This document shows, one piece after another, positions 6,444 through 36,553 of a stretch of DNA of 64,000 nucleotides. The first letter of the stretch is position 1, and the number at the start of each line of letters is the position of its first letter. Made by a program: the position numbers and the translations under genes. The notes below the pieces were generated by a model. The model made no database searches. It was not told the DNA's origin and saw nothing but the letters and a program-made list of their open reading frames with translations. The DNA lies in contig CAJKGK010000001.1 in the NCBI GenBank assembly GCA_905199445.1, positions 91,059 through 155,058 of the forward strand, read 5' to 3'. The stretch is from an uncultured Lachnospiraceae bacterium. GTDB lineage: Bacteria > Bacillota > Clostridia > Lachnospirales > Lachnospiraceae.

Positions 6444-6456
6444 ATGACTACCTCCG

Positions 6457-7045: not shown

Positions 7046-7046
7046 C

Positions 7047-8204: not shown

Positions 8205-8224
8205 TTTAATATTTCCTCCTTAAT

Positions 8225-8698
8225 TTAACAAAAGAATGCCAGCCGTATCAGGGCAATTGCAGATTTTTCAAATGTCTTTGTATTTCCGTCCTCCAGCTCA
8301 AGGGTTACGCTGTGATCATCATAGCTGTCCAGAAGGCCAACAAATTCCTTCTTTTTGTCAATGGCCTTGTAAAGACGAACCTCGACTTCCTTACCCACAC
8401 TGCGGGCAAAATCCTTTTCCTTTTTCAGCGGACGATCCAGCCCTGGTGAGCTGACTTCAAATATATAGTTTTCGGCAATATAGTCCTTCTCATCCAAAAT
8501 ATCTCCGAAAGCACGGCTTACAAGCTCACAGTCATCCACCGTAATGCCGCCTTCTTTATCAATATACACGCGCAGATACCAGTTTGGACCTTCCTTCACC
8601 CATTCCACATCCACAAGCTCAAAATGATTCGCCTCGATGATCGGTGTAATCAGTTCTTCTGTCATGCTCTCATAATCTTTCTTTGCCATTTGACTCAC
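8225..8698 (-). CDS. rimP: ribosome maturation factor RimP
   Basis: 157 aa RimP family, upstream of nusA. Confidence 0.9.
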   Translation of the reverse strand: MSQMAKKDYESMTEELITPIIEANHFELVDVEWVKEGPNWYLRVYIDKEGGITVDDCELVSRAFGDILDEKDYIAENYIFEVSSPGLDRPLKKEKDFARSVGKEVEVRLYKAIDKKKEFVGLLDSYDDHSVTLELEDGNTKTFEKSAIALIRLAFFC

Positions 8699-8864
8699 CC
8701 TTTCTTTCAGTTACTCATCCACCATCTTCCCCGTGCCGTCTCCATCCAAAACAGACTTTTGGCAAAGACCGAAAAACTCCACTTTACATAACACAGCTTC
8801 GGGACAAAGATAAAGAGTGGACTCACGCCCACTCTTCTAGTATCATCATATTGTTATCTGGTTC

Positions 8865-8893
8865 ATTATACCACTGAACCCCACAAGATGCAA
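8865..8893 (-). promoter_or_regulatory. strong sigma-A promoter of the rimP-nusA-infB operon
   Basis: Minus strand: TTGCAT (8888-8893), 17 nt, TGgTATAAT extended -10 (8865-8873). Leaves a ~160 nt leader before rimP. Confidence 0.5.
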
Positions 8894-8953
8894 GCCCAAT
8901 TTTTCAGTTCCAGTGATATACGCATCACCTTCATCCTTTTTCAATCGTCATTT

Positions 8954-9835
8954 TCATGCATCATATCTTTTAATAAAGGCAAAGCCCAGGGGATAAGGCC
9001 CTGTGTGCGTGGCTACCGTTGCACCGATCTGGCGAACCGGCACTGCCTTTGTCAGCCAGAATGTATCTTTAACCTGATTGGACAGCGCCATAGCCGCATC
9101 CATATCCAGTCCTTTGCCTACGCAAAACTCGTAATCATTGGGATTTTCTCCGGCTTTTTCAAAATAATCTCTGGCTATATCCAAAAGTTTCTTTAAGGCC
9201 TTTTTCTGATTTCTGGCAACACCGGCTGAAAAAATCTCGCCTTCCTTCATCACAATCAAAGGTTTAATTCCCAGGGCCGAACCGGCTATAAAGGCCATGC
9301 GTCCAATCCGTCCGCCCTTTTTCAGATATTCCAGATTACCCACGGTAAAGCAAATACGCCCTGTCGGCTGTATCCGATGCAATTCCTTGACTGCTTCCTT
9401 ATAACTTAAACCGTTAGCCTTCATCCGGGCTGCTTCCAGAACATACAGTCCCTCTTCTACTGTACACAGTCCGCTTTCGATGACTTTAATATGGGCATGG
9501 GGATATGTTTCAAGCAAAATATCTCTGGCCGTTTTAGCCGCCTGGTGAGATCCGCTAAGTTTTCCGGACAGACAGATACAGATAATGCTTTTACCGGCTT
9601 CCACAACCGGTGTAAAAGCTTCCATATAATCCTGAACCGAAGGGAGGGATGTCTTTGGATACGCCCCCTCATCAATCATTTTCTTATAATAGGCCTCTGT
9701 ATCAATATCTATTTTTTCTTTCATGTAGTTTTCTTCATCAAAAGACACATAAAAATGTACCTGATGGATCCCTTTCGCTTTCAGCAAATCTTCCGGAAGG
9801 TCACAGGCACTGTCTGCAAAAATTTCAAATGACAT
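8954..9835 (-). CDS. DegV family fatty-acid-binding protein
   Basis: 293 aa DegV/EDD fold sequence. AGGAGG RBS 6 nt upstream of the ATG. Confidence 0.85.
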   Translation of the reverse strand: MSFEIFADSACDLPEDLLKAKGIHQVHFYVSFDEENYMKEKIDIDTEAYYKKMIDEGAYPKTSLPSVQDYMEAFTPVVEAGKSIICICLSGKLSGSHQAAKTARDILLETYPHAHIKVIESGLCTVEEGLYVLEAARMKANGLSYKEAVKELHRIQPTGRICFTVGNLEYLKKGGRIGRMAFIAGSALGIKPLIVMKEGEIFSAGVARNQKKALKKLLDIARDYFEKAGENPNDYEFCVGKGLDMDAAMALSNQVKDTFWLTKAVPVRQIGATVATHTGPYPLGFAFIKRYDA

Positions 9836-9958
9836 CTTATTCCTCCTGAATTCAGTCGTTAGACATAGTTTTCAATACTACATTAATATTTTTTATTATA
9901 GCACACATTTCAGAAGAATCCTAGAGTATGTTTGAAAATTATCTAAAAAAATCACCAC

Positions 9959-10010
9959 AAAAAAAGGCCAGCCCATCCTTGAATCTCCGATGTGCTGGCC
10001 TTTATGCGGA
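9959..10010 (-). terminator. intrinsic terminator after the GH78 gene
   Basis: GGCCAGC...GCTGGCC stem (9966-9972 / 10003-10009), followed on the minus strand by T8. Confidence 0.6.
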
Positions 10011-10064
10011 ACTTAAACGCCCTTTTTACCCTTTTATATCCTTCATTTTTACATCGTGTATTTT

Positions 10065-12818: not shown

Positions 12819-12934
12819 AATATAAACCTCCTGCCACTTTTTATTTACAGAATAAATTTTCCTGTTATAATTACAAAAAAGACACATTATTTTTTACCGG
12901 CAGTATTTCCCTTCCGGCCCAAGGAGCAAAATCT

Positions 12935-14047
12935 ATGACACATGAAGATATCCTGACCTGGCTGTACACCCTCTCCCCCATTGAGGCAGCCCTGAAAGAT
13001 TACTATTTACACTATCACCGTCCGCCGCAGCCTTCCATGTTTCACCAAATCAGCTGCACCCAAATGCCAAAGTTTGACAAAGCCTTTGACAATATTGACA
13101 CCATCCCGGCCATTACAGCCGCACTGGACGGCCCCCCAGGAACATTAAAGCTGGAAATGGATGACACATGGATCCAAAAAGATGAGAATATCTCGATCTG
13201 CCGCCATCCCCGGTATTCACCGGTAAATATCCACACCCATACATTTATCGAGATTTCCGTGGTATACCATGGTCAGTGTACCCATCATTTTTATGAAAAT
13301 CTCCATGATTTGACCGATGGGGAACAACTTGATTTAAAAACCGGCGATATATGTATTATTCCGCCAAACACCTGCCACAGCATCAGTGTTTTCGATGACA
13401 GTATTATCATCAATCTTTTAATTCGGACAAAGCTGATGAAAGAGACCCTGTCCAGAATTTTATCCAGCAATCACCTGCTTTTTGATTTTTTTGTCCTCAC
13501 CCTTTACAACAAAGACACCTCGGATTTTATGCTGTTTTCCACGGATGCGGATCAACGGATTTTAAATCTTCTTGTGGATATGATGCTGGAAGCCTGTGAG
13601 CGGCGTCCTTACTATCAACAGGCTTCTGATTTAATGCTTGGCTTAATGTTTACCTACCTGCAGCGGGATTTTTCGGACCATATCCGCTTTTCCCGAAATG
13701 CAGCCACCGGAATCGGCCATATCCCGCCGATTCTTCAGTACATGCATCAGCATTACAACCAAAATGTGGACGAAATTGCCGGACATTTCCATTTGAATAC
13801 AGCTTACCTAAGCCGCCTGTTCAAAAAGCATACCCACCATACAGCCATTGAAACCCTGAAAAAAATCCGCATGGAGGCAGCAAAAGACTTCCTTCTCAAT
13901 TCCCATATGCCGGTTCAGGATATCAGCCAGACTGTAGGCTACAGCGACATCCCATTTTTTATCAGTACCTTTAAAAAATACTATGGCGCCACACCTCTCC
14001 AGTACCGCAAAAATGCCCGGTGTCGTGTACCGTCAGACACCCAATAA
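12935..14047 (+). CDS. AraC family transcriptional regulator (cupin sensor + HTH_AraC)
   Basis: C-terminal AraC HTH signature (...YLSRLFKK...GYSDIPFFISTFKKYYGATPLQYR). Divergent from the GH78 gene. Confidence 0.85.
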   Translation: MTHEDILTWLYTLSPIEAALKDYYLHYHRPPQPSMFHQISCTQMPKFDKAFDNIDTIPAITAALDGPPGTLKLEMDDTWIQKDENISICRHPRYSPVNIHTHTFIEISVVYHGQCTHHFYENLHDLTDGEQLDLKTGDICIIPPNTCHSISVFDDSIIINLLIRTKLMKETLSRILSSNHLLFDFFVLTLYNKDTSDFMLFSTDADQRILNLLVDMMLEACERRPYYQQASDLMLGLMFTYLQRDFSDHIRFSRNAATGIGHIPPILQYMHQHYNQNVDEIAGHFHLNTAYLSRLFKKHTHHTAIETLKKIRMEAAKDFLLNSHMPVQDISQTVGYSDIPFFISTFKKYYGATPLQYRKNARCRVPSDTQ

Positions 14048-14059
14048 TCAACAAAATTT

Positions 14060-14098
14060 GCCCTGAGTTTATTATAGCTTCAGGGCATTGATTTCTCC
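14060..14098 (+). terminator. weak intrinsic terminator after araC-family gene
   Basis: GCCCTGA(14060-14066)...TCAGGGC(14080-14086), then a T-rich tract. Confidence 0.4.
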
Positions 14099-14458
14099 AC
14101 AGAGAGAATTGACTAAAAAATATGGTTTTTTTGATTTTTATAAATTCAACTTTCAAATCCTGTCATTCAATGTTCTCTTTACAATAAATTTTCCAAATTC
14201 ATGGACAAGTTTCAAATATTTTTTAATAATCAACACAATCCTGTCATCATTTTGCACAATTCAGAGATATTCAAAGCGCAGGATTGTATTAATTTGCAGC
14301 ATTATAATTCTTTTATATCCTTCCAAATAAATATATAATATATGCATCACATGGGCACAGCGGCCGCGGCCCAGCAAATATTATAAATCGTAATTTAGCC
14401 TTATTTTTTACAACCAACACCTTGTACACAGAAATAAATATATGGGAGGATTATAACT

Positions 14459-16009
14459 ATGAAAAAGAAACTCATCGCAGTCGGCCTGGCAACAACTATG
14501 GCACTTTCTTTAGCCGCATGCGGCGGCTCTGGAGATAACGCTGCACCATCTGACAGCGGCTCATCATCAACCGGTACCCAAAACAATGATTCCAGTGCAG
14601 CAGCTTCCGGCGAAGTTACAAAACTGGTCATGACCTTTCCTACCTGGACAGGCGCTCCAATCGATACTCTGAAAATTCAGGATGCCATGAATGCGATTAC
14701 CAGAGATAAGTTAGGTATTGAAATCGAACTTCAGATTACCGACTACGCCTCCTATAATCAGAGCATGACTCTGGCTTTATCCGGCGGTGAACAGATTGAT
14801 ATCGCCACATGTACCGGTTTCCCTTATGGCAATGCTATAGCCCAGGATTATCTTCTGGATCTGGAAGCCGATGATCTGCTTACGACTTACGGTTCAGGCA
14901 TTATTGAAGCTGTTGGTCAGGAAAATATCGATGCCTGCCGCGTGGGCGGAGTTTTATACGGATTGCCCAACAATCGTGATATCGCCCAGGGCCGTGGCTG
15001 TGCAGCGGTTGCTACAGAATATCTGGACGGCATCGGCTATGAATTTGACCACGAGGCCGAGATCGTAAAAATAACACTGGATGAGTTAAATGATATTTAT
15101 GCTCAGCTTCATGAAAAATATCCGGATCTGGAAGTCTACAGACCAACCACAGGTTCTATGAATCAGTTCTCCAATGTGGACTCCCTCGGCGGTAATGTTT
15201 TCGGTGTTCTCCTTGATTATGGAAAAGAACTAAAAGTTGAGAATCTTTTTACCAGCGATTATTATAAAGAATATTGCGAAAGAATGTACGACTATAATCA
15301 AAAAGGATATATCAGTCAGGATGCAGCTACAGATACAACAGCTGTAGGCGAACTGGTAAAGGCCGGCACACTGATGAGCTATACAACCGGCGGAAAACCT
15401 GGTATTAAGGCTCAGGAAACCAGCCTTTGCGGCAGAGATATGACCATTTTCCAGACAATGGATGACTTTATCACCTCCTCTGCAATTGCTTCTTTCCCAT
15501 GGGTAATTCCTGTAACATCTGAAAATCCTCAGGCTGCTATGACTTATCTGAATGAACTTTATACCAATGCAGATCTGGCCAACATTTTAGCCTGGGGCAT
15601 CGAAGGTACCCATTATGTGATTGGTGATGACGGGCTGGCCACATACCCTGACGGTGTAGATGCCTCCAATTCCGGCTGGAATCATTCCATGGGCTGGATG
15701 CTTCCCAATCAGTTCCTCTCTCATGTATGGGAAGGCAACGATCCTCAGCTTTGGGATAAAATGAAAGCGTTCAACAGTAATGCCATGGTTTCAGCAGCCA
15801 GCGGATTTACTTTCGAAACCGCAAATGTTGCCAATGAAATTACAGCCGTTCAAAACGCTTATAATGAATTCCAGACAAGTGTGGAATATGGCTTTGTAGA
15901 TCCTGCCACAGGTATTCAGGAAATGAATGACAAACTCATGACAGCTGGGCTTGATAAGATTATCGCAGAAAAACAGCGTCAGCTGGACGAATGGGCTGCA
16001 AATAAATAA
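14459..16009 (+). CDS. ABC transporter extracellular solute-binding lipoprotein (LplA-like, family 1)
   Basis: Signal peptide with LAACGG lipobox. 516 aa SBP. GGGAGG RBS. Confidence 0.85.
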   Translation: MKKKLIAVGLATTMALSLAACGGSGDNAAPSDSGSSSTGTQNNDSSAAASGEVTKLVMTFPTWTGAPIDTLKIQDAMNAITRDKLGIEIELQITDYASYNQSMTLALSGGEQIDIATCTGFPYGNAIAQDYLLDLEADDLLTTYGSGIIEAVGQENIDACRVGGVLYGLPNNRDIAQGRGCAAVATEYLDGIGYEFDHEAEIVKITLDELNDIYAQLHEKYPDLEVYRPTTGSMNQFSNVDSLGGNVFGVLLDYGKELKVENLFTSDYYKEYCERMYDYNQKGYISQDAATDTTAVGELVKAGTLMSYTTGGKPGIKAQETSLCGRDMTIFQTMDDFITSSAIASFPWVIPVTSENPQAAMTYLNELYTNADLANILAWGIEGTHYVIGDDGLATYPDGVDASNSGWNHSMGWMLPNQFLSHVWEGNDPQLWDKMKAFNSNAMVSAASGFTFETANVANEITAVQNAYNEFQTSVEYGFVDPATGIQEMNDKLMTAGLDKIIAEKQRQLDEWAANK

Positions 16010-16042
16010 AATCATTCATTCACCTAAAATGACACATTCACC

Positions 16043-16091
16043 GGGGCTGCCAGTTCAGCAGTTATTGTAAAAATATCCGCTGTGACAGCCC
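16043..16091 (+). promoter_or_regulatory. intra-operon stem-loop between SBP and permease genes
   Basis: GGGGCTG...CAGCCCC 7-bp stem with a ~35-nt loop, followed by a weak U tract. Typical partial terminator giving SBP excess. Confidence 0.35.
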
Positions 16092-16125
16092 CTTAAAATA
16101 TGATTCCGAAAGGAGGCCATGGCTT

Positions 16126-17091
16126 ATGGAAAAAGCCGTATCCAAAAGCAACAAGGTGTATCCGCTGCCCCCAAAAAACAAAATGACCTGGCGTAAATTC
16201 AAACGTTTTATTCCCATTTATCTTCTCATGCTTCCAGGTCTTGCTTATCTGTTTATTAATAATTATATGCCCCTGCCCGGACTTATGGTGGCATTTAAAA
16301 AATACAGCGCAGTCAAAGGCATTTACGGCAGCCCCTGGGTTGGACTGAAAAACTTTGAATATCTTTTTACCACCAGCGATGCCTGGGTCATTACAAGAAA
16401 TACCATTTGTTATAATATCGCTTTTATTATTATTAATACAACCCTGGCCATTGTGGTTGCTATCATTTTAAGCGAACTCACCGGACGGGTAAAAAAATTC
16501 TATCAAAGTGCGATTCTTCTCCCAAACCTAATTTCTACCGTTATTATCGGATATCTGGTCTTCGCCTTTTTCAGTGTGGAAAATGGATTTATCAACAATA
16601 CCCTTTTTAAAACTCTGGGTCTTGAACCTGTTGCCTGGTATTCAGAACCTGAATATTGGCCCTTTATCATCATTTTTGTCAATGCATGGAAAACCGTAGG
16701 TTATAACTGCATTATCTATCTTGCCACTTTAATGGGAATCGACAAAACCTACTATGAATCCGCAAAAATTGACGGTGCAACAAAGTGGGAGCAAATCCGT
16801 CATATCACGCTGCCCCTGTTAAAGCCAACGGTAATTATGCTGACATTGATGGCCATCGGACGTATTTTCTACTCTGATTTCGGTCTTTTCTATCAGGTTC
16901 CCATGAATCAGGGTGCACTCTACGCCACAACCAATACGATTGATACGTATGTTTACAGAGGACTTCTGCAGATGGGTAATATCTCCATGTCCGCCGCTGC
17001 CGGTGTTTACCAGTCCATTGTAGGATTTGTTCTTGTTCTGGGTGCAAACCTGCTTGTACGTAAGTTTGACCGTGAAAACGCATTGATTTAG
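16126..17091 (+). CDS. sugar ABC transporter permease (LplB-like)
   Basis: 321 aa, 6 TM, binding-protein-dependent permease EAA-like region. AAAGGAGG RBS. Confidence 0.85.
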   Translation: MEKAVSKSNKVYPLPPKNKMTWRKFKRFIPIYLLMLPGLAYLFINNYMPLPGLMVAFKKYSAVKGIYGSPWVGLKNFEYLFTTSDAWVITRNTICYNIAFIIINTTLAIVVAIILSELTGRVKKFYQSAILLPNLISTVIIGYLVFAFFSVENGFINNTLFKTLGLEPVAWYSEPEYWPFIIIFVNAWKTVGYNCIIYLATLMGIDKTYYESAKIDGATKWEQIRHITLPLLKPTVIMLTLMAIGRIFYSDFGLFYQVPMNQGALYATTNTIDTYVYRGLLQMGNISMSAAAGVYQSIVGFVLVLGANLLVRKFDRENALI

Positions 17092-26046: not shown

Positions 26047-29000
26047 CTATTCTAAACCACTTAAATATGCCTTTAATGCATCAACATCCGGTGATGTATA
26101 TGGCTTAATTCTCAGTTTTTCCCGCACACCATCTGTAAAATATACAGTGTTGTCTCTTAACCCTGAAATGGAAGGTTCGTCAAGCAAAAATTGTGCATCC
26201 CCCTGAGAAAGGGAGAAGACGATCCGTTCCGGGAAGTTTTTGATCACATTATTTCCATAGGAACACATGGAGTCTTTGACCGTCTGATATTCCAGAGCAG
26301 ACACAACAAAGCAAATGCCATACATGGATCCACTTTCCATCAGTTTAATCAGCTTATCCCCCACGGGCATGGTATCTTTATGCGTTTTCGGGCCAGAAAG
26401 AATATGATCAAAGTTAAACGCAGCCATAGGGTCAGAAAAATCCCCGTTTTCCTGTTCCGGCTCATCATCCAGATAATCGCTGCGCTCCACCGGATCACCA
26501 TTAAACATCATTTCCACAATATCCAAAAACTGAAGGTTTTTGAAAATCACAAAAATCTGCTCTTTTTTATTCTTTTTCTTTCTAAGTTGGAACTCATCAT
26601 ACACATCATCGATCATGCGGATGATACTTCCCCGATCTTCTGCCAGCGTCAATCGTCCGCTCCAGTCTGACAGAAGATGATAAAACGGTCTTGAGGTTTC
26701 GTCATCAACCATTAGATCGCCATCGGCACAGTATACCAAAGCATTACGGTTTAAAAGCGCACTGATCATATAATTATCAATGATCCGGCCTGCCATCTTC
26801 ACATCAGTGCCGCATACAAGTAAGTTATGCTTCCGCTTTTTATCAATAACGATTTTATAAGGCGGTGCAACCTTAATCGGTACACCCAGATGAATACATG
26901 CCGGGAATTCATCGGTCATTCCAATCCCCTGTACACGGAAATAATCCAGCAATTTTTCGGTTCGTTTACCTTCAAAAACCTGAAGTCGGGCCGGATAGTC
27001 TTTAAACTGATCACTGATCATCTTGAGATATTCATGCTGCGTCTCATCATCTAAATATGCGACTCTGAATCCCATCGCAGGCTTTTCCGTATAATCCGGA
27101 TTCATCACCGCGGTTCCCACAGGTCCCTTCATCATTGTCTGAATCTTTCCGCAGTCTTCATTTCCAAACAAATACCGGATATCTGATTCCCCACATTTTA
27201 AGCCTACACGAATAAGCATCTGCTCCGCAATGCCGGAAATCAAAGTCATATTGGATATACTTCTCATGGACTGGGTAGCCATCAGCAGATGAATTCCAAA
27301 AGCACGGCCTTCCGTCACAATACGCTTAGCCAGCTCGGAACAATGCTCCGCAACCTTTCTGTTGGCAGCATCATTAAACAGAACCTGGAATTCATCAATA
27401 ATAACCAGGATTCTAGGCATAGGCTTGCCGGTTACACTTACGTAATCTTTAACGGCCGTTACCCCGCCGCCTTCTTCTTTAAACAATTCCGCTCTGTGTT
27501 CCATTTCCTGAACAAGACTTTCCAGAATACTTTCACCAAATTCCTGCATGGCATCCAGAGCCAGCAGACGGATATGGGGAAGTTTTTCAGACTCATAAAT
27601 TTTAAATTCTGTTCCGCTTTTAAAATCCATAAGATAAAGCTGAAGCTGATCCGGGCTGTAATTAAGCATACTGCTCATGATCACTGTATGTAACAGCGTG
27701 GATTTACCGGAACCGGTAGCACCCGCAATCAGACCATGATGAGAAGACCCTTCCCCCATCACCATGTTTACAGCCGCATCCCGGTCGCCGATACCTACCG
27801 GAATGGAAAGCTTGCCAAAGGACTGCGCCTTAAACAGTTCTTTTGGAAGAATATCTGAAAATGAAATGCCCTGACGTTTGATTTTGCCTAACTTTTTCAC
27901 ATATGCTGACATAAACTGTTCCATTTCCAGGTCAGATGGAAGCCCTGTAATACTTACCGGGTAATCATACGGCATTAAACAATACCGGCCATTTTTATAT
28001 GCGATTTGTTCACAGCCTTTTTTAATTTCTGAAAGATGCTGTTCTGTATGATCATAGATCGAATAAGAAATTTCCGGGTTATGGCAAATCAGCACATAAA
28101 CGCCGCACCGTTTTCCGTTCTGTACGATATTTTGCAAAAGTTCCAGATTCCTTTTATCCATACCACTTGGAAAATCATATAAAACCAAAAGTGTGGCTGC
28201 TTCACTGCGATTTGGCGTATTTTTATTATATTCCCAGAAATCCCCATACCGGTTTCCCAGCTTATCCTGAATAAATTCATCGATCTGCTGGTTCAGTTTT
28301 TTCAGCCGCTCATACATATCTTCCTGGGCCGTATATATTTTTTCGTCAAACGCATCCGGACAGCGCTTTTTAAAATCCAGAAATGGTATAATGCTGTTTC
28401 CCCGCTGCCTGCCGTCAAAAACACAAATATTCACCTTGCCCACAGGCAGTGATGATAAAAATGTCCATATCACATGATGCGTAAAATCCAGGATTTCCCG
28501 GCTGTATTCAGAGGGACATTCCAGGAAAAAATCAAGCCCCTGTCTAAGATCCATCATCATGGGAAGCTGTATCTGCCAAAGGCCGTTCTGCTGACTGGGC
28601 TCTGTGCCAAAAAATTCCAGCATCTGATGATAAGCGCTGCTTGAGGAAAATAGTGAAGCCGGATAATCAACCATGCCAATGGCCACTTCCTGAGGAAAAG
28701 CATTGCCTGCGCCTAAAGCCTGAGTTTTTTGACTCCACATATGTTTCAACTGATAAAGCTGGGCCACTGCAGCATCGACCTCAGCGGCCTGTTTTGAAAA
28801 AATAATTTTATACAGCAATGGGGAAAATACGCCCCCCTGATCTGACGAATCTTGTGAATATAAACTATATTTTTCTAGAAAATGCTTTGCTTTTTCATCG
28901 TCCATACTGCAATGAAGATCATACCAACAGCCGTCCATCAAAAACTCCGATGACCGCTGGATAATTATTTTTGACAAACGCCAGATTTCATCCATATCTT

Positions 29001-30444
29001 TTCCCGACATTGTCTGATTGTTTTCCTGTGGATTTTCTCCTAAAGTCATGCACATGCGGACGCCGCATTTTGCCCCGTTTTTCATTATATTGAGCACATC
29101 AGCCATGACATCCCCAACCATCGCTGCAGAAAAATCAAATAATAACAAAAGTTCTGTTTGAACCTTATAATCTAAGTGATCGCTGGCATAATCATAAATT
29201 GTATGGTAGCTTCCGCCCAGCTTTTCCTGAGTCATCCGGGTCACCCGATCACTGATTTCTCTGATTTTTTCCCGTATTTCTCCCCCTTCGGTATAGATTT
29301 TATTACCAAACAGTTGAGGGACCTGTTGTCTCAGACTATAAAATCCAGAAATACTTCCGCCTTTTCTTACGGGGTCAACCACTGTATAAACCAGCTGCCC
29401 TACAGGTACTGATGAAAGCATACTCAACATCAAACGATTCACAAAACGCCGTGGGATATCCGGATTTGTACCATCCCCTTGAATCAGCCATGAAGATGTG
29501 CCATACTGGCTCATGCCGCAAGGCAAAAACAGCAGATTGCCGTCCGTAACCAGATCTTTAAACTTGTTTTTAATCAAATGTTTGATATCCGCATTATTGA
29601 TCCAATTTAAATCATAAGCGACATAGCCTTGATTGAACAAACCGTTCACACATTGGGATGTCTGATTCAGCTTATATTCTTCCTTAAAAAAGTCAAACAG
29701 CTGATTTTCCATTAAAAATATCAGGTCATCACTAAAAAGCTGATCCAAATCCTTAGCCATTTTTCTATTCGTATTATTTTGCCTCTCAGAAGCTTCCATA
29801 TACCCCTGTGAAATCTGGTCGCTCAGCTGTTTTTTTATTTTTTTGTTTTTAGCTTCAATGGCCGACTGATACTGTTTTATGCTGTTTGTAAGAATTTGAT
29901 TTCTTTCCTTTCTTAAGGTCTCATTAAAAAAGCGGAGCGTTTCTCTAAGATCAATCAGCTGGTTTGTATCACCTACATTTCCGGCACTAAACAAACCGGA
30001 TAAACCACCTTTCGGTTGATAGGCCTCCCCGTATGAGGAAAAATATCGTATACTGCAAAACTGCGCTTTAAGCTTATCTAAAGCCCGGGAACAGTCATCC
30101 ACTGTTTTCAGCTCAAAAAATTCTGGCTGAATCTGACGGGGCGCTCTCCCTGTTTTGACCATATACGCAACTTTGTCTGTAAGCTTTCTTCTATAAAATA
30201 CAGAGGCCAGCTCCCGATCTATGGAATTAGCTTCTTTATATATAGACTCCAGCCTTTGTGTCATTTTTTCAGCAATTTCTGATGGATTGATCTCCGAATT
30301 CTGAGCAGAGAATTTACGCTGGGCATCCTGCTCAATACGTCTCCTGCGCTGTTCATTTTGTTCCATCAATGCTACCGCATTATGAAGAATCGTATCTAAA
30401 TTCTTAACCAACTCCGGTACATTTTCCCAATTAAATACTGCCAT
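26047..30444 (-). CDS. soluble multi-domain FtsK/SpoIIIE-family ATPase (EssC/EccC-like, four P-loop-like domains, only domain 3 intact)
   Basis: Walker A LIAGATGSGKST at 27698-27733 and Walker B ILVIIDEFQ around 27386-27420. Three further domains align to the same fold but lack GKS/T. No hydrophobic TM segment or FHA-like N-terminus; the first 300 aa are helical. Start at the second ATG (30444), 7 nt after AAGGAAGG. Confidence 0.8.
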   Translation of the reverse strand: MAVFNWENVPELVKNLDTILHNAVALMEQNEQRRRRIEQDAQRKFSAQNSEINPSEIAEKMTQRLESIYKEANSIDRELASVFYRRKLTDKVAYMVKTGRAPRQIQPEFFELKTVDDCSRALDKLKAQFCSIRYFSSYGEAYQPKGGLSGLFSAGNVGDTNQLIDLRETLRFFNETLRKERNQILTNSIKQYQSAIEAKNKKIKKQLSDQISQGYMEASERQNNTNRKMAKDLDQLFSDDLIFLMENQLFDFFKEEYKLNQTSQCVNGLFNQGYVAYDLNWINNADIKHLIKNKFKDLVTDGNLLFLPCGMSQYGTSSWLIQGDGTNPDIPRRFVNRLMLSMLSSVPVGQLVYTVVDPVRKGGSISGFYSLRQQVPQLFGNKIYTEGGEIREKIREISDRVTRMTQEKLGGSYHTIYDYASDHLDYKVQTELLLLFDFSAAMVGDVMADVLNIMKNGAKCGVRMCMTLGENPQENNQTMSGKDMDEIWRLSKIIIQRSSEFLMDGCWYDLHCSMDDEKAKHFLEKYSLYSQDSSDQGGVFSPLLYKIIFSKQAAEVDAAVAQLYQLKHMWSQKTQALGAGNAFPQEVAIGMVDYPASLFSSSSAYHQMLEFFGTEPSQQNGLWQIQLPMMMDLRQGLDFFLECPSEYSREILDFTHHVIWTFLSSLPVGKVNICVFDGRQRGNSIIPFLDFKKRCPDAFDEKIYTAQEDMYERLKKLNQQIDEFIQDKLGNRYGDFWEYNKNTPNRSEAATLLVLYDFPSGMDKRNLELLQNIVQNGKRCGVYVLICHNPEISYSIYDHTEQHLSEIKKGCEQIAYKNGRYCLMPYDYPVSITGLPSDLEMEQFMSAYVKKLGKIKRQGISFSDILPKELFKAQSFGKLSIPVGIGDRDAAVNMVMGEGSSHHGLIAGATGSGKSTLLHTVIMSSMLNYSPDQLQLYLMDFKSGTEFKIYESEKLPHIRLLALDAMQEFGESILESLVQEMEHRAELFKEEGGGVTAVKDYVSVTGKPMPRILVIIDEFQVLFNDAANRKVAEHCSELAKRIVTEGRAFGIHLLMATQSMRSISNMTLISGIAEQMLIRVGLKCGESDIRYLFGNEDCGKIQTMMKGPVGTAVMNPDYTEKPAMGFRVAYLDDETQHEYLKMISDQFKDYPARLQVFEGKRTEKLLDYFRVQGIGMTDEFPACIHLGVPIKVAPPYKIVIDKKRKHNLLVCGTDVKMAGRIIDNYMISALLNRNALVYCADGDLMVDDETSRPFYHLLSDWSGRLTLAEDRGSIIRMIDDVYDEFQLRKKKNKKEQIFVIFKNLQFLDIVEMMFNGDPVERSDYLDDEPEQENGDFSDPMAAFNFDHILSGPKTHKDTMPVGDKLIKLMESGSMYGICFVVSALEYQTVKDSMCSYGNNVIKNFPERIVFSLSQGDAQFLLDEPSISGLRDNTVYFTDGVREKLRIKPYTSPDVDALKAYLSGLE

Positions 30445-30457
30445 AATCATGCCTTCC

Positions 30458-30727
30458 TTAAAATCTTATACTTCCGTACTCATCTAACGCCTGAGCCAGT
30501 CTTTCCAGCTTTGGCGCAGCTGTGCGAAGGGCCGCCGTCGGCTGAGCAGTCAGCTGGGCAATCCGACGCATAAGCATCATAAACTGCTGGGACTGCTCGT
30601 CATCCCATTCCGGGGATTTTTTCAGGACAGACTGAATACCGCTGCTGATCCATTCCAGATCGCTGGCGGTTTTTAACAGATCCTGTTCCATTTCACGTAT
30701 AACTTCCGGTGAAGCCTTTACTGACAT
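30458..30727 (-). CDS. small helical WXG100-like protein, paralog 3 (W-D-D-E motif)
   Basis: 89 aa with central ...SPEWDDEQSQQF.... AGGAGG RBS. Its stop is 7 nt from the ATPase RBS. Confidence 0.6.
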   Translation of the reverse strand: MSVKASPEVIREMEQDLLKTASDLEWISSGIQSVLKKSPEWDDEQSQQFMMLMRRIAQLTAQPTAALRTAAPKLERLAQALDEYGSIRF

Positions 30728-30737
30728 TTTCTTCCTC

Positions 30738-31019
30738 CTACAAACCTGTTGACTCGTATCTTCTGATAATCCTCAATAATTCTTCAAGTTTAAGCAAACA
30801 ATCTTTAAGTTCTTTTTCCGGAACTTCCATAGCCTGACAGCAATCCCCGACAATTCGTCCCAATTCCATATATTTTTGGTCCTGCCAGCCCCCCAAGCCT
30901 GCCATCTGATAACCATGGTTTAATTTTTTTATAGCCATTTCAAGTTCCTGAATCGAAGTCTGACAACATCTGATTCCACCTTCAACAGCTCCGCTTTCCA
31001 CAGATACACTTTTTGCCAT
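30738..31019 (-). CDS. small helical WXG100-like protein, paralog 2 (W-Q-D-Q motif)
   Basis: 93 aa with central ...GGWQDQKYMEL.... AGGAGG RBS. Confidence 0.6.
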   Translation of the reverse strand: MAKSVSVESGAVEGGIRCCQTSIQELEMAIKKLNHGYQMAGLGGWQDQKYMELGRIVGDCCQAMEVPEKELKDCLLKLEELLRIIRRYESTGL

Positions 31020-31036
31020 ATGAATCCTCCTGTCAT

Positions 31037-31795
31037 TTAAATCGGTGTATTCAGATATTTCTCAATACTCTGAATACATTTCTGTACTGCACTGATATTT
31101 CTCTCTGCCACATGATTGGATGAATATTCCAATGCTTTGGCAGCACTGACATAGGCCTGCAGTTCCCTTTCCATATTCCAGTATGCCTGCTTTAATCTGT
31201 CTCTTTTACTTTCTCTGCACATTAACCGGCTGCGTTCCGAATCCAGTTTTTCTCTGCAGGCCCGTTGTCTGTTGGACAGGTTCTGCCGCTGTGTATAAAG
31301 CATTTGCCGCCGGTTATTTTCTGCACTTTTCTGAGCAGTCAATGCCTGGCACTCACTCTCCATCCGGCTGATCTGCATTTCCAGAGTTCTGATCTGGTCA
31401 CTATACCGATTGACACTGGCCTGATCATTACTGGCCTGAGCCGATTGCATTCCGGATCGGGCAGAAGCCACATCCCCATTGAGATAGCCGATTTCTTTTC
31501 TTATTCCGTCAATTCTTCCCGTAAGGAAGTCAATCTTACTCAAACACTGCTGATACTCGTCCTCCACTCTGGAAAGCTCAGCCGTAATTGTCTCCAGTTG
31601 CCGAGAAAGTTCCCTTTCCATCATTAAGCTTTCATTCACAGCCGCCTCTGCCTGATTCACACTTTTCTGTCCCGAATAAAGGGTTTCATTAACTCTTTTC
31701 TCTATTCTGAACGCAATTCCTGAAATATCAGCGGAAAATCCATTTAACGCTTTTTTTACATCCTGTAGCGCTTCTATTGATACTGAAGCCTGCAT
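31037..31795 (-). CDS. coiled-coil protein with N-terminal LxG-like motif (possible LXG-domain-like substrate/adaptor)
   Basis: 252 aa, heptad-rich, Q/S/R-rich. Residues 12-21 VKKALNGFSAD. No recognisable toxin domain. GGAGG RBS. Confidence 0.6.
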   Translation of the reverse strand: MQASVSIEALQDVKKALNGFSADISGIAFRIEKRVNETLYSGQKSVNQAEAAVNESLMMERELSRQLETITAELSRVEDEYQQCLSKIDFLTGRIDGIRKEIGYLNGDVASARSGMQSAQASNDQASVNRYSDQIRTLEMQISRMESECQALTAQKSAENNRRQMLYTQRQNLSNRQRACREKLDSERSRLMCRESKRDRLKQAYWNMERELQAYVSAAKALEYSSNHVAERNISAVQKCIQSIEKYLNTPI

Positions 31796-31828
31796 TATCT
31801 AACGCCTCCACTTACTTAAGATTTTCTC

Positions 31829-32047
31829 CTAATAGTTTTCGTTTGCGATTCTTTCAAATTCCTCTACAGCCCTCTGACTTCTTCTGCCTGTTTCCATCAC
31901 AAATCTGGATTTATTTCCCAGCTGGGCCACAGAATCAGACAGTTGTCTGTAATTTTCATCCTGCCATAAAACAGATGCCTTTTTTATGGCATTTCCCAGT
32001 TTTGTCACAGACAGTTCAAATGCCATAAGCTCTCCATAGTTTCCCAT
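31829..32047 (-). CDS. small helical WXG100-like protein, paralog 1 (W-Q-D-E motif)
   Basis: 72 aa from the ATG at 32047 (GGGGA 5 nt upstream), or 78 aa from a GTG at 32065 that lies 3 nt after the polC stop. Central ...VLWQDENYRQL.... Confidence 0.55.
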   Translation of the reverse strand: MGNYGELMAFELSVTKLGNAIKKASVLWQDENYRQLSDSVAQLGNKSRFVMETGRRSQRAVEEFERIANENY

Positions 32048-32068
32048 AAATTTCCCCGCTTTCACTTT

Positions 32069-35000
32069 TTACATAATATCAAAAATAGACAGCTGATTGC
32101 TTTCCGGCAAATCGCCCAAAAGCCCCAGATGATAAAGTGTGTCCACAACCGACTGACCAACCTTTGCCCGCTGCCGGATATCGTCCCTCGAAATATAGGG
32201 ACCATGCTGTCCGGCCTCTGCCAAGGCCTCACCTGCAGTGTCTGCAATACCCTCGATGGAAGAAAACGGCGGTCTCAGTTTGCCGTCCTCAATCAAAAAC
32301 TTAGTGGCATGAGATTTGTACAAATCTACAGGCAGAAATTCAAAGCCTCTGGCATACATTTCCTGAACAATACGCATATCCTTAAGGGTCGACTCTTCCT
32401 TCTGGCTCAGGTTTGGATTAGCCTTATAGTTTTTAATGTGTCGGTCCAAAGCCGCCTTGCCCTGACACATCAGCTCATAATTAAAGGCCGTTGCTCTGAT
32501 GCTGAAAAATGAGGCATAAAAAGCCAATGGTTCGTGAATTTTAAACCAGGCAATACGAAATCCCATCATTACATAGGCCACCGCATGGGCTTTCGGAAAC
32601 ATATATTTGATCTTTTTACATGACCATATATACCAGTCTGGCACATCATGTTCTTTCATTGCCGCTTCCCATTCCGGGGTCAGCCCCTTACCTTTTCGCA
32701 CACTTTCCATAATTTTAAATGACAGCTCAGACTCCATTCCTTTATGAATGAGATAAATCATAATATCATCTCGTGTGCAGATGGCTGTGGAAATCGTTGC
32801 CTTGCCCTCCTGAATCAGTGTCTGGGCATTGCCCAGCCATACATCTGTCCCATGGGACAGCCCTGCAATCCGGGCCAGATCGGAAAATGCGGTAGGATGG
32901 GTATCCTTTAACATCTGCATGGCAAAATCCGTACCAAACTCCGGAACCCCCAAAGATCCCAGCTCCGTGCCCCCAATATCCTCGGGCTTAATTCCCAGGG
33001 CATCCAGTCCATGAAACAATGACAGTACGTCCGGATCATCCAGTCGGATTTTTGTGGCATCCACACCGGTAATATCCTCCAGCATACGAATCATTGTGGG
33101 ATCATCGTGTCCCAGTATATCCAGCTTTAAAAGGTTATGGTCAATAGAATGGTAGTCAAAATGCGTGGTAATGGTTCTTGTATTCACGTCATTGGCAGGA
33201 TGCTGCACTGGCGTAAAGGTATAAATTTCCATACCCATAGGAACAACCACAATACCGCCAGGATGCTGACCGCTGGTTCGGCGCACACCAACACAGCCCT
33301 CTGCAATCCGCTCCAGCTCGCAGCTGCGTTTATGGATCTCATGATCCTCATAATAGCCTCTGGCATAGCCGTAAGCTGTTTTTTCCGCCAATGTACCGAT
33401 CGTTCCCGCTCTGAAGGTCTGTCCGTGTCCGAAAATAACCTCCGTATAGTCATGGGCCTTACTCTGATATTCACCTGAAAAATTCAGGTCAATATCCGGT
33501 TCCTTATTTCCTTTAAACCCCAGGAAAGTTTCAAAAGGGATATCATGGCCTTCTTTGGACAAAGGCTGACCGCAGACCGGGCAAAGCTTATCTTCCATAT
33601 CACATCCGCTGCGTCCTGAAAAACTTTTCACATAATCAGAGTCAAAGTCCACATACTTGCAGTTTGGACATAAATAATGAGCCTGGAGCGAGTTTACCTC
33701 TGTAATACCGGCCATAAACGCCGCAAAGGAAGATCCGACAGAACCACGGGAGCCTACCAGATAGCCGTCATCAACGGACTTCCACACCAGTTTCTGGGCA
33801 ATGATATACATCACGGCGAAACCATTGCTGATAATAGAATTCAGCTCTCTCTCCAGACGCTCGGTCACGATATCAGGCAAATTTTCTCCGTAAATCGAAT
33901 GGGCCTTTTCATAACATATATTTCTCAGCGTCTGATCGGAATTTTCAATGACCGGAGGGCACTTGTCCGGGCTCACCGGCGAAATTTTTTCGATGCGGTC
34001 TGCAATCTTATTGGTGTTGGTAATTACAACCTCCTCTGCCTTTTCCGATCCCAGATACATAAATTCCTCTAGCATTTCTTCTGTTGTCCGAAAATACAGA
34101 GGCGGCTGGTTGTCTGCATCTGCAAAGCCTTTTCCGGCCATAATTACCCGGCGGTAAAGCTCATCCTCCGGATTGAGAAAGTGCACATCACAGGTGGCAC
34201 ATACAGGTTTGTCAAACTGCGCCCCGAGGCGGACAATTTTCCGATTCAGCTCTCGTAAATCCTCCTCATTGTTCACCTGAGGAATCTTTTCACTGTCAAT
34301 CATGAAGTGATTATTGCCGATGGGCTGAATCTCCAGATAATCATAAAAGCCAACGATTCTGGCGATTTCATCCTCCGGCCGATTGTTAAGTACAGCCTGA
34401 AACAACTCCCCGGCCTCGCAGGCGGAGCCTATAATCAGCCCTTCCCTGTACTTATTCAGCAGACTTTTAGGAATTCTGGGCCGACGCTGATAATACTGAA
34501 GGTGAGACAAGGAAACAAGACGGTAAAGATTCACCCGGCCAATCTCATTTTGAACAAGGATAATGCAGTGAAAGGTTTTCAGTTTTTTAATGGCACTGTC
34601 TGACATATGGCTGATGGCATTTAACGCGTCCAGATCATAAATTTCCTGCTTTTTCAGCCGCTGTATAAACCGCACAAAAACATGTGCCGTAGCCTGAGCA
34701 TCATCTACTGCCCGGTGATGATTTTCCAGCACACAATCCATAGCCGCCACCACGGTATCCAGCTTATAATTTTTAAGATCCGGCAGCATGGCCCTGGCAA
34801 TTCCCAGCGTATCCACAACCACAAATTCCCGCTCAATCCCCTGAACCTGACAATTATGCTTTATAAAGCTCATGTCAAACGCCGCATTATGAGCCACCAT
34901 GATACAGCCTTCGCAAAATGCCATAAATTCCGGCAGCACCTGGTTAATAGCTCTGGCATCCAGCACCATATCATCATTAATCCCTGTCAATTTCTCGATT

Positions 35001-36553
35001 TCCGCAGGTATGGGCACACCGGGATTCACAAAGGTGGAGTACCTGTCCACAATTTCACCGCCACTGACTTTGACTGCACCGATCTCGATGATATGATCAT
35101 TCACCGAACTAAAGCCGGTTGTCTCGATATCAAACACTACAAAGTCACTGTCCAGACTTTCACCGTGACCGCCGTCCACAATCTGTTTCAGGTCATCCAC
35201 AATATAAGCCTCACAGCCATAAATCACCTTAAAGGGCGCAGAAACTTTTTTCAGCTCATCCTTTCCCGCATCGGGATGTTCGGCCTGGTACTTTGAACGA
35301 AAAGCCTTATCAAAATCCTCCACAGCATGGTTGGCATCCGGAAAGGCCTGCACCACCCCGTGATCAGTCACGGCAAAAGCCGTATGTCCCCAGGAATATG
35401 CGGTTTTTAACATCTTTTTACAGTCAGCCACGCTGTCCATGTCACTCATCGTTGTATGAGCGTGAAGTTCCACCCGCTTTAATGGGCTGTTATCCATACG
35501 CTTTTGGGTAAAATCCGGAATTGTCTTAATCCCCACCACCGAGGATATGGCCACATCATGGTCATACTTGTCAATCAAAGCCATGCCTTTAAGCTTGACA
35601 AAGCTTCCTTTTTTCAGACTTCCCAGCACATCGGGGAGAAAATCATTTTTTACAAACAGCTTGACCATAATACTGTCGGAAAAATCCGTGATGGCAAACA
35701 TGATAATTGTCTTTTCATTTCGAATTTCCCTTGTTTCAACCTTGAAAATCTGTCCGTGAACAATCACCTCGCCGACTTCATCGGTAATTTCAGAAATCGG
35801 TGTAATCTCTCCATCAAAGCCCTTACCAAAGAAAATATCCTTGTCATCCACCCTGCGCTGCTGATAATTGTCGCGGCGCTGCTGCCATGTCTTTTTCTTT
35901 TCCTCGGCTTCTCTGGCCGAAGCAGCTTGATCCGCCGCCTCCTGCTTTGCCTCTTTTTTGGCTTCCTCATAGTTTTGAACAATACTTTGAATTTCCTTTT
36001 CCAAAGCTTCCTCGGCAAACTTTTTATGCCTGCTTTCAGTTTCCGGAATCCTGCAGATTTCCACGGCCAGATCCATACCAAAACGATTTTTATACAGATC
36101 AATTAACTTCTGCCTGGCACTTTCTATTTTTGTATTAGTTATAAAATTATCTTCAACAGTAAGACGAAGGGTTCCATTGTCTGTGAATTCCTTTTTTGCT
36201 CTGTGGAAAACATTAGCCTCCACAGCACTCTCCTCCATCAGCTCGGCTTCAAAAGATGGGCCATAAAGATCCAGCAAATTTCCGGGCGTATACTGAGCCG
36301 ACAAATGATAGTGTTCAACCATCTCAATATGGATATCCGGATCTTCAAACAGCTGGGATTTGATCTCACCTTCCACATTTTTAATGTCCTCACGGAAAAT
36401 CAAATGCCGGCTCTCCATATGTACCCGCACACATTTTCTTGTCCTGCTGGCCGTAACCCGGTCAACAAAAACCTCACCGAAAAGATCCTGAAGCGCCTGA
36501 CTTAGCTTTAAAACAGGAAATACATGAAAAAATGGTGTTCCCATGTCCATCAC
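32069..36553 (-). CDS. polC: DNA polymerase III alpha subunit, PolC-type (with 3'-5' exonuclease and PHP domains)
   Basis: 1494 aa with classic PolC organisation. ATGA overlap with the ispG stop. Confidence 0.95.

Follow-up and report, generated by a model that had tools for sequence, protein, structure and literature searches.

The locus described here raises the question of how a T7SS-type ATPase without a membrane anchor could export proteins, if it does so at all, and its five-gene version of the cassette is the smallest on which to address it. On the minus strand of the window, by which we mean the whole 64-kb stretch of DNA that was analyzed, four ORFs encoding proteins of 72, 252, 93, and 89 residues (p72, p252, p93, and p89) lie between polC and the gene for a 1467-residue FtsK/EssC-like ATPase (Table 1). 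The cassette consists of these five genes only and is flanked by polC and an Abhydrolase_10 gene, and the remainder of the window is made up of housekeeping and sugar metabolism genes. Gaps of 33, 17, and 10 nt separate p72, p252, p93, and p89 in turn, while p89 and the ATPase gene are either spaced by about 13 nt or overlap shortly, depending on which ATPase start is chosen. The p72 start is an ATG with a GGGG ribosome-binding site; an alternative upstream GTG would give a protein of 78 residues. Promoter and terminator sites were no commoner in the cassette than in shuffled sequence. A previous sequence-only reading of this DNA took the three small products to be paralogous helical proteins, perhaps a sub-family of ESAT-6-like or LXG-associated partners, and pointed to an LxG-like motif in the 252-residue product; in LXG effector systems, small partners of this kind bind the LXG helical domain and direct it to EssC.

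Table 1. Features of the cassette and predicted domains of its ATPase, with positions in the window
Feature	Protein residues	Window position	Strand	Remarks
p72	1-72	31829..32047	-	72-aa W-x-D hairpin protein; W28-Q-D30 = 31958-31966; cassette gene 1, starts 21 nt past the polC stop
p252	1-252	31037..31795	-	252 aa; predicted antiparallel two-helix hairpin; putative carrier/stalk protein
p93	1-93	30738..31019	-	93-aa W-x-D hairpin protein; W45-Q-D47 = 30879-30887; hub paralog
p89	1-89	30458..30727	-	89-aa W-x-D hairpin protein; W41-D-D43 = 30599-30607; C-terminus LDEYGSIRF
ATPase	1-1467	26047..30450	-	1467 aa, soluble, EssC/YueA-like
ATPase N-terminal coiled coil	1-300	29551-30450	-	
ATPase domain A	301-590	28681-29550	-	FtsK-like, degenerate
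ATPase domain B	591-870	27841-28680	-	FtsK-like, degenerate
ATPase domain C	871-1140	27031-27840	-	Predicted active; Walker A G910-S917 = 27700-27723
ATPase domain D	1141-1467	26050-27030	-	FtsK-like, degenerate

A Family of W-x-D Hairpin Proteins

The three small proteins contain the core peptides LWQDENYRQL, GGWQDQKYMEL, and EWDDEQSQQF, which had been summarized as a conserved W-[QD]-D-[EQ] core. In an alignment of 46 relatives from at least five phyla, the Trp and the Asp are the sole invariant columns, and to this extent the motif holds across homologs. Position 2 (Q/D/H/S/K/N/R/E) and position 4 (E/Q/K/S/A/D/R/N) vary, however, and the core is reduced to W-x-D, frequently extended by x-[KQ]-[YF]-x-x-[LF]. 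A C-terminal export signal of the YxxxD/E type, for which a check had been suggested, is absent from all three tails; what is conserved at this end of the small proteins is instead [DE]-Y-x-x-x-x-[LF].

Pairwise BLASTP among p72, p93, and p89 gives weak matches or none, as might be expected if they were unrelated small coiled-coil ORFs that share a W-x-D tripeptide by chance. Against this, profile–profile comparison with hhalign joins p93 to p89 (95% probability, E 2e-8) and to p72 (93% probability, E 2.5e-7); p89 and p72 compared directly in this way are not significantly similar. The Trp and Asp that persist across phyla, the conserved gene order, and the purifying selection described below also speak against chance, a reading that is refuted and retains next to no probability. 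Orthologs of p72 are present in every complete related locus, and those of p89 are 70-88% identical. These comparisons indicate that p72, p93, and p89 are paralogous W-x-D helix-turn-helix proteins under selection.

Proteins of 72, 93, and 89 residues that have no hydrophobic segments match WXG100 proteins in size and in the lack of a signal peptide or TM segment. In p89 as modeled by AlphaFold2 (pLDDT 84), a helix from residue 7 to 37 is followed by a loop from 38 to 43 that holds W41-D42-D43 and by a second helix from 44 to 87. The best Foldseek match of this model is S. aureus EsxA (TM 0.80, rmsd 1.7), and the other top matches are G. thermodenitrificans EsxA, B. anthracis EsxB, and HP0062, all of them WXG100 proteins. 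The helix-turn-helix is thus modeled for p89 and extends to p93 and p72 through hhalign, in agreement with the earlier prediction of an all-helical trio. Compared with solved structures, the family profile finds HP0062 (E 7.7e-9), B. anthracis EsxB (E 1e-8), and S. aureus EsxA (E 1.7e-6), while PF06013 is matched by 20 of the 46 relatives (E<=0.01; best E 6.7e-10) and TIGR03930 by 12. The W-x-G turn itself is not found, as all 46 relatives have W-x-D, and the Asp aligns in the family profile with the Gly of the B. anthracis EsxB W-x-G; the proposed replacement of the central Gly by Asp is borne out. An FtsK/SpoIIIE-family ATPase gene adjoins the trio, which is the neighborhood expected of WXG100 genes. 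At the level of the family, these profile matches identify the trio as divergent WXG100 proteins, and the idea of a paralogous ESAT-6/WXG100-like sub-family is upheld.

Individually, the window proteins are harder to recognize. Against the Pfam WXG100 model p89 reaches E 0.0037 and 17.9 bits, where the cutoff is 27.3, and p93 and p72 have no match. Because the window copies lack the W-x-G turn and fall below the Pfam threshold, annotation pipelines leave the W-x-D proteins and their relatives unnamed. The W-x-D motif provides a simple sequence handle for such systems and for their cargo, as it heads polymorphic toxins in gut Clostridia.

A Soluble EssC-Like ATPase

The tie to EssC that had been drawn from the sequence stands in part: an EssC-type ATPase does adjoin the trio, but it is not a canonical EssC, as it has neither FHA domains nor a TM segment and is made up of four FtsK-like domains with the third active. 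These four domains are mutually homologous (A to B, E 1.6e-52), and Walker A and B are kept by domain C alone. Pfam FtsK_SpoIIIE is matched at residues 880-1062 (E 2e-28), and the best PDB match is EccC (4NH0, chain residues 276-499), with EccC, EccC5, and YukB as the closest structures. The maximum Kyte-Doolittle mean over 19 residues is 1.63 and falls within the P-loop domain. None of the catalytic residues varies among 76 relatives, and among the best ~110 clusters of an exhaustive search nearly all are TM-less and have a single Walker A. We interpret the protein as a cytoplasmic ATPase with four FtsK-like domains, the third alone predicted to be active. On our analysis, W-x-D is the mark of a coherent WXG100 clade that is invariably accompanied by a membrane-less EssC-like ATPase.

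A word-indexed search had made the ATPase appear as a near-orphan, with an identical protein and matches of at most 33% identity only. This view was abandoned when exhaustive HMMER and direct comparison found many orthologs at 36-57% identity.

The 252-Residue Coiled-Coil Protein

The LXG-like role once assigned to p252 leaned on an N-terminal LNG as an LxG-like motif. This motif does not hold up, being replaced by LEK or LKQ in orthologs, and Pfam LXG (PF04740) has no significant match to p252. In the AlphaFold2 model (pLDDT 93.6), helices 2-121 and 125-248 form one long antiparallel hairpin, for which the only Foldseek matches were antiparallel coiled coils of a generic kind, for example SMC arms and chemoreceptors. 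The protein is conserved in its first helix and, at the C-terminus, in an E-K-Y-L-N-T-x-I tail. A homolog in one related locus (L017) carries a C-terminal ADP-ribosyltransferase domain (ADPrib_exo_Tox, E 1.7e-28), and five further homologs have a C-terminal extension, of about 215 residues in L124; window p252 ends at the coiled coil, without a C-terminal toxin domain. With such homologs, p252 appears to behave like a toxin-carrying stalk, functionally LXG-like but not an LXG domain, and this much of the earlier assignment survives.

The possibility that p252 is an expanded WXG100 hairpin was considered and rejected, as its N- and C-terminal parts gave hhalign probabilities of at most 10% against the three small families. 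It resembles the small proteins only in the first helix and in its tail, which is of the EY type.

A long helical protein amid small helical partners could also be the substrate and adaptor set of a classical T7SSb encoded elsewhere, in which p252 would be an LXG-like effector stalk and the trio would be Lap-like partners that target it to membrane-bound EssC. The toxin on the p252 homolog would fit, and the arrangement resembles LXG–Lap targeting complexes (PMC10801868). However, the three proteins and their 46 relatives have no match to DUF3130/TIGR04197, DUF3958, or YwqH (Lap1/Lap2, YwqH-like), which removes the suggestion of Lap/DUF3130-like partners, just as p252 has neither an LXG match nor a conserved LNG. 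The 64-kb window contains no T7SSb core gene, a dedicated ATPase is part of the cassette, and W-x-D proteins with the same ATPase clade occur in phyla without T7SSb. We consider a T7SSb substrate set very improbable.

Related Loci and Their Neighborhoods

The order p72–coiled-coil protein–p93–p89 is kept in about 70 loci, in which the ATPase is strictly co-inherited; in L066, L087, and L091 a W-x-D protein is followed by a coiled-coil protein. In most related loci the cassette is enlarged by genes for a membrane protein, for E2/JAB/E1, and for toxins whose N-domain is p93-like. The membrane protein ZnTM follows p89 in 61 of 66 informative loci, L022, L152, and L153 encode a Sel1 protein that has two TM helices, and a small 4-TM protein is encoded in L025 and L026. 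The toxins to which p93-like N-domains are fused in relatives are ART, Colicin-DNase/WHH, Gln_amidase, Endonuclease_NS_2, and Ntox15, and small immunity-like ORFs lie beside these fusions.

Copies of the cassette occur in three unrelated contexts, after polC (window and L095), after a fucose isomerase gene (L008), and near OmpA and ECF sigma factor genes (L012), and a serine recombinase gene adjoins the copy in MT836827.1. A single scan with a narrow p93 alignment found 58 metagenome loci, the clade is common in human-gut Clostridia, and the identical cassette is present in several independent metagenome samples. These placements mark the cassette as a mobile module.

Full-size relatives contain a CBASS Cap2/Cap3-like E2/E1/JAB set, and in L021 a TerY-C domain protein adjoins the ATPase. 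Distant relatives have vWA/PP2C/kinase genes around them, and those of Gram-negative bacteria lie in TerY-P-like (PMC4978471) or Type III-A CoCoNuT (PMC11090510) defense neighborhoods. It is possible that these contexts, together with the mobile-island behavior of the cassette, the absence of a TM segment from the ATPase, and the absence of a membrane partner from the window, reflect a cytoplasmic conflict or defense module, in which the soluble ATPase would remodel, assemble, or unfold the hairpins and the coiled-coil protein, for example as an anti-phage or anti-plasmid sensor or effector scaffold, and nothing would be exported. However, PADLOC matched no known defense system in the cassette and returned only a generic FtsK/HerA domain and coiled-coil noise. 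The W-x-D domain is fused to toxins typical of exported polymorphic toxins, with immunity-like genes adjacent, and nearly every relative has an operon-internal membrane protein. To our knowledge, moreover, the WXG100 proteins of known role are all secretion substrates or adaptors. We hold a purely cytoplasmic role to be unlikely, though it deserves to be taken seriously.

A Reduced Copy Under Selection

A membrane protein, the E1/E2/JAB genes, and a toxin are all missing from the window cassette. A tblastn search of the window found no ZnTM homolog, and neither the 64-kb window nor the 10 kb around Blautia-type cassettes contained a toxin with a W-x-D domain. The lineage of the window and L095, its closest relative, is the only one seen without a cassette membrane protein, and L095 has the same reduced layout after polC. 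Such losses could mean that the cassette is a decaying remnant whose lineage shed the membrane protein, the E1/E2/JAB genes, and the toxins, leaving five useless genes. Against decay, all five window ORFs are intact, the catalytic residues of the ATPase are preserved, and the identical cassette recurs in independent metagenome samples. Between the window and L095, dN/dS of the five genes is 0.09-0.31 at dS 0.33-0.56, with 0.09 for p72, values that point to purifying selection on all five window genes. We therefore judge a remnant to be quite improbable.

Proposed Function

The most likely reading on our analysis is that the module serves T7SS-like targeting and export. In its specific form, that the four genes and the ATPase gene make up a mobile unit of five genes that belongs with the "stand-alone WXG100 / FtsK-like ATPase" operons and presumably acts in T7SS-like export, we give it an even chance. 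By analogy with T7SS, the hairpins would pair into four-helix bundles; gene adjacency makes p89 the probable partner of p93, and p252 that of p72. In an antiparallel dimer, the W-x-D turn of one protein would lie beside the [DE]-Y-x-x-x-x-[LF] tail of its partner, and the two together may form a two-part signal. An ATPase hexamer could recognize this signal, perhaps through its last degenerate domain, in the manner of EccC D3, and ATP hydrolysis by domain C would then deliver the bundle, with whatever cargo is fused to it, to a membrane partner for export. As cargo, the window copy may handle its own p252, p93, and p89, or else W-x-D toxins from other parts of the genome. Since the window cassette is without a membrane protein, a membrane partner, if needed, would have to act in trans.

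Several observations were counted against this reading, among them the TM-less ATPase, the absence of a membrane protein and a toxin from the window cassette, and the failure of the window proteins to reach the Pfam WXG100 cutoff. The defense neighborhoods of Gram-negative relatives were counted likewise, being equally compatible with an intracellular role. We know of no report of experimental secretion of any W-x-D protein.

A broader proposal concerns the whole Clostridial W-x-D/soluble-ATPase clade, which might constitute an export pathway outside T7SSa-j. Targeting would be encoded by the W-x-D turn and the [DE]-Y-x-x-x-x-[LF] tail together, a separate B-box/TM protein would take the place of the EssC membrane domain, and the Cap2/Cap3-like E2/E1/JAB set and a tiny GKLA-ending protein would use covalent conjugation to control assembly or cargo; the minimal core would then be represented by the window copy. 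We put this forward tentatively, as a possibility that is more doubtful than not.

Comparison with Known Systems

The cassette shares with the T7SSa-j systems (EsxA/EsxB with EccC/EssC) WXG100-fold hairpins beside a multi-domain FtsK/SpoIIIE-family ATPase, and its relatives add toxins with WXG-like N-domains nearby. The T7SSa-j subtypes described by Garrett, Higginson & Palmer (2024, PMC11217815) all use a membrane-bound ATPase, which in most of them is joined by a YukD-like protein and by specific membrane components. By contrast, the window ATPase, like its whole clade, is TM-less, Asp replaces the motif Gly, and by gene content the five-gene cassette has no YukD/EsaB-like protein or subtype-specific membrane component. 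With the LXG toxin–Lap1/Lap2 complexes of T7SSb (PMC10801868), the cassette has in common an elongated helical stalk, able to bear a toxin at its C-terminus, among small helical partners. It differs from LXG–Lap systems in that LXG and Lap matches are absent, LxG is unconserved, the partners are of the WXG100-type W-x-D kind, and the cassette has a dedicated, soluble ATPase.

Among solved structures, the family profile matches best H. pylori HP0062 (PDB 3FX7 / 2GTS), a helix-hairpin-helix protein of about 86 residues. Its W-R-D turn has been explicitly noted as a stand-in for W-x-G (PMC3397514), so the W-x-D variant is already known from this protein, and its gene clusters with an FtsK/SpoIIIE gene, HP0066 (PMC3397514; PMC4978471). 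HP0062 is a single hairpin protein from a Gram-negative host and forms a homodimer in the crystal, whereas the window has three paralogs, and the window ATPase has an extra duplicated inactive domain.

The cassette matches a mobile operon known as stand-alone "WXG100 / FtsK-like ATPase" from Zhang et al. (2012; PMC3482391, Table 1 footnote 6) and from Anantharaman et al. [quoted passage not shown] 2024, PMC11090510). In the literature searched we found nothing specific on a system that combines E1/JAB with WXG100/FtsK, nor a description of the B-box/TM protein and E2/JAB/E1 set of most relatives. The published operons encode an ATPase of three domains together with one or two WXG100 proteins and come mostly from Gram-negative phyla, whereas the window cassette has four domains (the first duplicated), a fixed W-x-D trio, and a host among the Clostridia. 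Both have an EssC-like ATPase without TM or FHA regions, in which a long coiled coil at the N-terminus precedes several FtsK domains with a central one alone active, and both add WXG100-like proteins and a separate, effector-fusable coiled-coil protein to form a mobile, self-standing unit. The W-x-D module has already been noted in comparative-genomics papers.

The trio and its fold

The three peptides quoted in the sequence-only reading match ORFs of the window exactly; they are p72, p93 and p89, small proteins of a cassette whose products are named by length in amino acids. They appear to be G-to-D variants within the WXG100 superfamily, since the family profile, an AF2 hairpin and Foldseek matches agree. 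Individually, p89 matches Pfam WXG100 over its full length below threshold (E 0.0037), and profile searches gave no family match for p93 and p72; among 46 relatives, 20 match WXG100 (best E 6.7e-10) and 12 match TIGR03930. Compared with all solved structures, the family profile ranks H. pylori HP0062 first (E 7.7e-9, turn SWRDARRDKF), followed by B. anthracis EsxB and S. aureus EsxA, whose W-x-G glycine pairs with the Asp in the alignment. For p89, AF2 (pLDDT 84) predicts a hairpin whose loop carries W41-D42-D43 directly ahead of helix 2; in Foldseek the model's top matches are without exception WXG100 proteins. Profile and Foldseek results thus bear out the earlier description of all-helical, WXG100-like proteins with Asp for Gly. 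The Lap/DUF3130-like membership also suggested there is not upheld, as no Lap, DUF3130 or YwqH family was matched.

Direct BLASTP among the trio is weak. Profile-profile comparison links p93 to both p89 (95% probability, E 2e-8) and p72 (93%, E 2.5e-7), while the direct p89 to p72 comparison was not significant; p93 thus ties the three together as paralogs, in line with the proposed paralogy. A 46-sequence alignment of small proteins and toxin N-domains, drawn from Clostridia, Planctomycetota, Chloroflexota, Treponema, Pseudomonas, Hazenella and one actinobacterium, has W and D as its only invariant columns, so that the proposed W-[QD]-D-[EQ] core keeps these two residues and loses positions 2 and 4, which are free to vary. 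In the same alignment, G or S is preferred before the W, K/Q at W+4, Y/F at W+5 and L/F at W+8. A [DE]-Y pair lies about 5 residues before the C-terminus (Y in 37 of 46), and the last residue is usually L or F; a YxxxD/E export tail was checked for and none is present.

Cassette layout and selection

The cassette has intergenic gaps of 10-33 nt and good ribosome-binding sites ahead of p252, p93 and p89, and a convergent Abhydrolase_10 gene lies beyond the ATPase. The 21 nt between the polC stop codon and the cassette start (window 32048-32068) hold no promoter-like site, and this junction is also found in L095, the closest related locus, which has an identical layout likewise behind polC. Because no promoter or terminator signal stood out in a scan of the cassette, read-through is possible, and the cassette may share a transcript with polC, an essential replication gene. 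Every related locus has orthologs of each trio member. Residue 26 of p89 (window 30650-30652) is Trp (DLEWISS), and Arg, Gln or Lys in all orthologs and in otherwise identical metagenome copies; residue 34 of p72 is R here and K in the related locus L001. Both are strain-level substitutions.

Coordinates of cassette and related features; dN/dS is window versus L095, taken at dS 0.33-0.56
Feature	Position	Strand	dN/dS	Remark
polC	32069-36553	-		directly precedes cassette
p72	31829-32047	-	0.09	first cassette gene
p252	31037-31795	-	0.31	second cassette gene
p93	30738-31019	-	0.11	third cassette gene
p89	30458-30727	-	0.15	fourth cassette gene
FtsK/SpoIIIE-family ATPase, 1467 aa	26047-30450	-	0.18	after p89
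Polymorphic toxins, W-x-D N-domain	L016:14141-16297, L021:14551-16685, L027:10766-11596, L108:1373-2191, L141:192-1175			related loci

The coiled-coil protein

The AF2 model of p252 (pLDDT 93.6) is one long hairpin of helices 2-121 and 125-248, with generic coiled coils as its only structural neighbours. Its LNG, previously taken as an LxG-like motif, is LEK or LKQ in orthologs and LXG is not matched; comparison with the W-x-D families gave no statistical link. The observation in the sequence-only reading is confirmed, and its interpretation was right in part only. Judged from its homologs' sequences, p252 is probably a carrier in function. The L017 homolog (L017:3462-5246) has a C-terminal ADP-ribosyltransferase domain (E 1.7e-28), and five further homologs carry C-terminal extensions, of about 215 aa in the L124 protein (encoded at L124:4538-5929). 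That extension, conserved in L124, L143, L154, L144 and L150, contains GGGRHRVMLAQ; Pfam offers no match for it, and it may represent a toxin domain not yet described. Chloroflexi, Treponema and Pseudomonas loci likewise place a W-x-D protein and then a coiled-coil protein upstream of the ATPase.

A soluble ATPase and its neighbours

The ATPase has no TM segment. Residues 1-300 form a coiled coil, behind which lie four FtsK-like domains, all homologous to one another; A and B arose by duplication (E 1.6e-52), and Walker A/B are kept in domain C only, with residues invariant in 76 relatives. The closest structures are EccC (4NH0), EccC5 and YukB. An exhaustive search recovered a large clade, whose members nearly all lack TM segments and have one Walker A, in a long (~1450 aa) and a short (~1130 aa) class; TM-bearing EccC-like proteins are common only lower in the list. 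A word-indexed protein search overlooked orthologs that share 55% identity along the full length, making the apparent orphan status it gave unreliable.

About 70 loci keep the order p72, coiled-coil protein, p93, p89. Directly after p89, 61 of 66 informative loci encode a B-box-like zinc-ribbon protein with 3-4 TM helices, followed in most by a tiny GKLA-ending protein, a Cap2-like E2, JAB, a ThiF-type E1 and then the ATPase. This five-gene insert occurs in L015, L016, L017, L020, L021, L023 and ~40 metagenome loci (e.g. L016:5719-9612); its tiny protein (54-78 aa) ends in P[DEAS]GKLA and its E2 is CBASS Cap2-like (PADLOC E 1.9e-9). Blautia-type loci (L008, L012, L097) have only the zinc-ribbon protein of this set, the L022 lineage has instead a Sel1 protein with two TM helices behind the ATPase, and the cassette of the window/L095 lineage lacks any membrane protein.

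Downstream of relatives' cassettes lie toxins with a p93-like N-domain, adjoined by small immunity-like genes and often an M48 peptidase; their toxin domains are ART, Colicin-DNase/WHH, glutamine deamidase, Endonuclease_NS_2 and Ntox15.

Beyond the hairpin fold, paralogy, ATPase architecture, co-inheritance, selection and toxin fusions, which are established, analogy with T7SS suggests a mechanism. Hairpins would pair into bundles, the W-x-D turn and EY tail would form a composite signal, and the ATPase would recognise it and then hand over to a membrane partner. The ATPase coiled coil, domain A, p252 and p72 evolve fast and domains B-D, p93 and p89 more slowly, which offers only a hint of interaction pairs. 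The main rival to handover at the membrane is a purely cytoplasmic conflict role, lent some weight by an ATPase without a membrane anchor and by distant relatives in defence-type neighbourhoods.

The cassette is present in three unrelated genomic contexts, and in one record it adjoins recombinases. This record, L099 (MT836827.1, UNVERIFIED 'Bacteriophage sp.', human faeces, 10.4 kb), encodes an E1, a small coiled-coil protein, a W-x-D toxin and a 1422-aa ATPase of the window's clade (37% identical across 90% of the query). Because a large serine recombinase and an integrase-like gene adjoin these cassette genes, the record suggests an integrative element, not a phage genome. In L006/L007 (P0003 locus), an FtsK-like ATPase of 1022 aa, more distantly related, adjoins a VirD4/TraG-type coupling protein, with Prok-JAB, ThiF and small ORFs downstream; here the ATPase type is paired with JAB and E1 for a second time, in a different way. 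The Gram-negative relatives L087 (Pseudomonas taeanensis, 6633-16550) and L091 (Treponema, 4963-12750) keep W-x-D, coiled-coil and ATPase genes together, with vWA, PP2C-like and kinase-like genes (identified by eye) on either side, in a TerY-P-like neighbourhood. L021 has a TerY-C domain protein directly after the ATPase.

Comparison with known systems

Our literature searches found no experimental work on this WXG100/TM-less-ATPase kind of operon and no paper on a ubiquitin-like conjugation set within a WXG100/FtsK operon. Nor did the searched literature yield the four-domain ATPase, the fixed W-x-D trio, family-wide Asp invariance or the B-box/TM and E2/JAB/E1 association in Clostridia. The T7SSa-j survey (PMC11217815) required a membrane-bound ATPase and did not include the window's type. 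The cassette's kind is already known from comparative genomics. Zhang et al. 2012 (PMC3482391) described WXG proteins occurring solo alongside a distinct YueA-like ATPase, of whose three FtsK domains the middle one alone is active, and termed them 'mobile versions of T7SS'. Earlier papers had also noted that HP0062 has a W-R-D turn and is linked to an FtsK gene (PMC3397514; PMC4978471), and the trio likewise combines a W-x-D turn with an adjoining FtsK/SpoIIIE-family ATPase. Bell et al. 2024 (PMC11090510) reported an EssC-like ATPase with an N-terminal coiled coil where the FHA and TM regions would be, partnered by WXG100 proteins and a coiled-coil-nuclease fusion, and took the absent TM helices to imply a different mechanism; the window ATPase is of this same kind.
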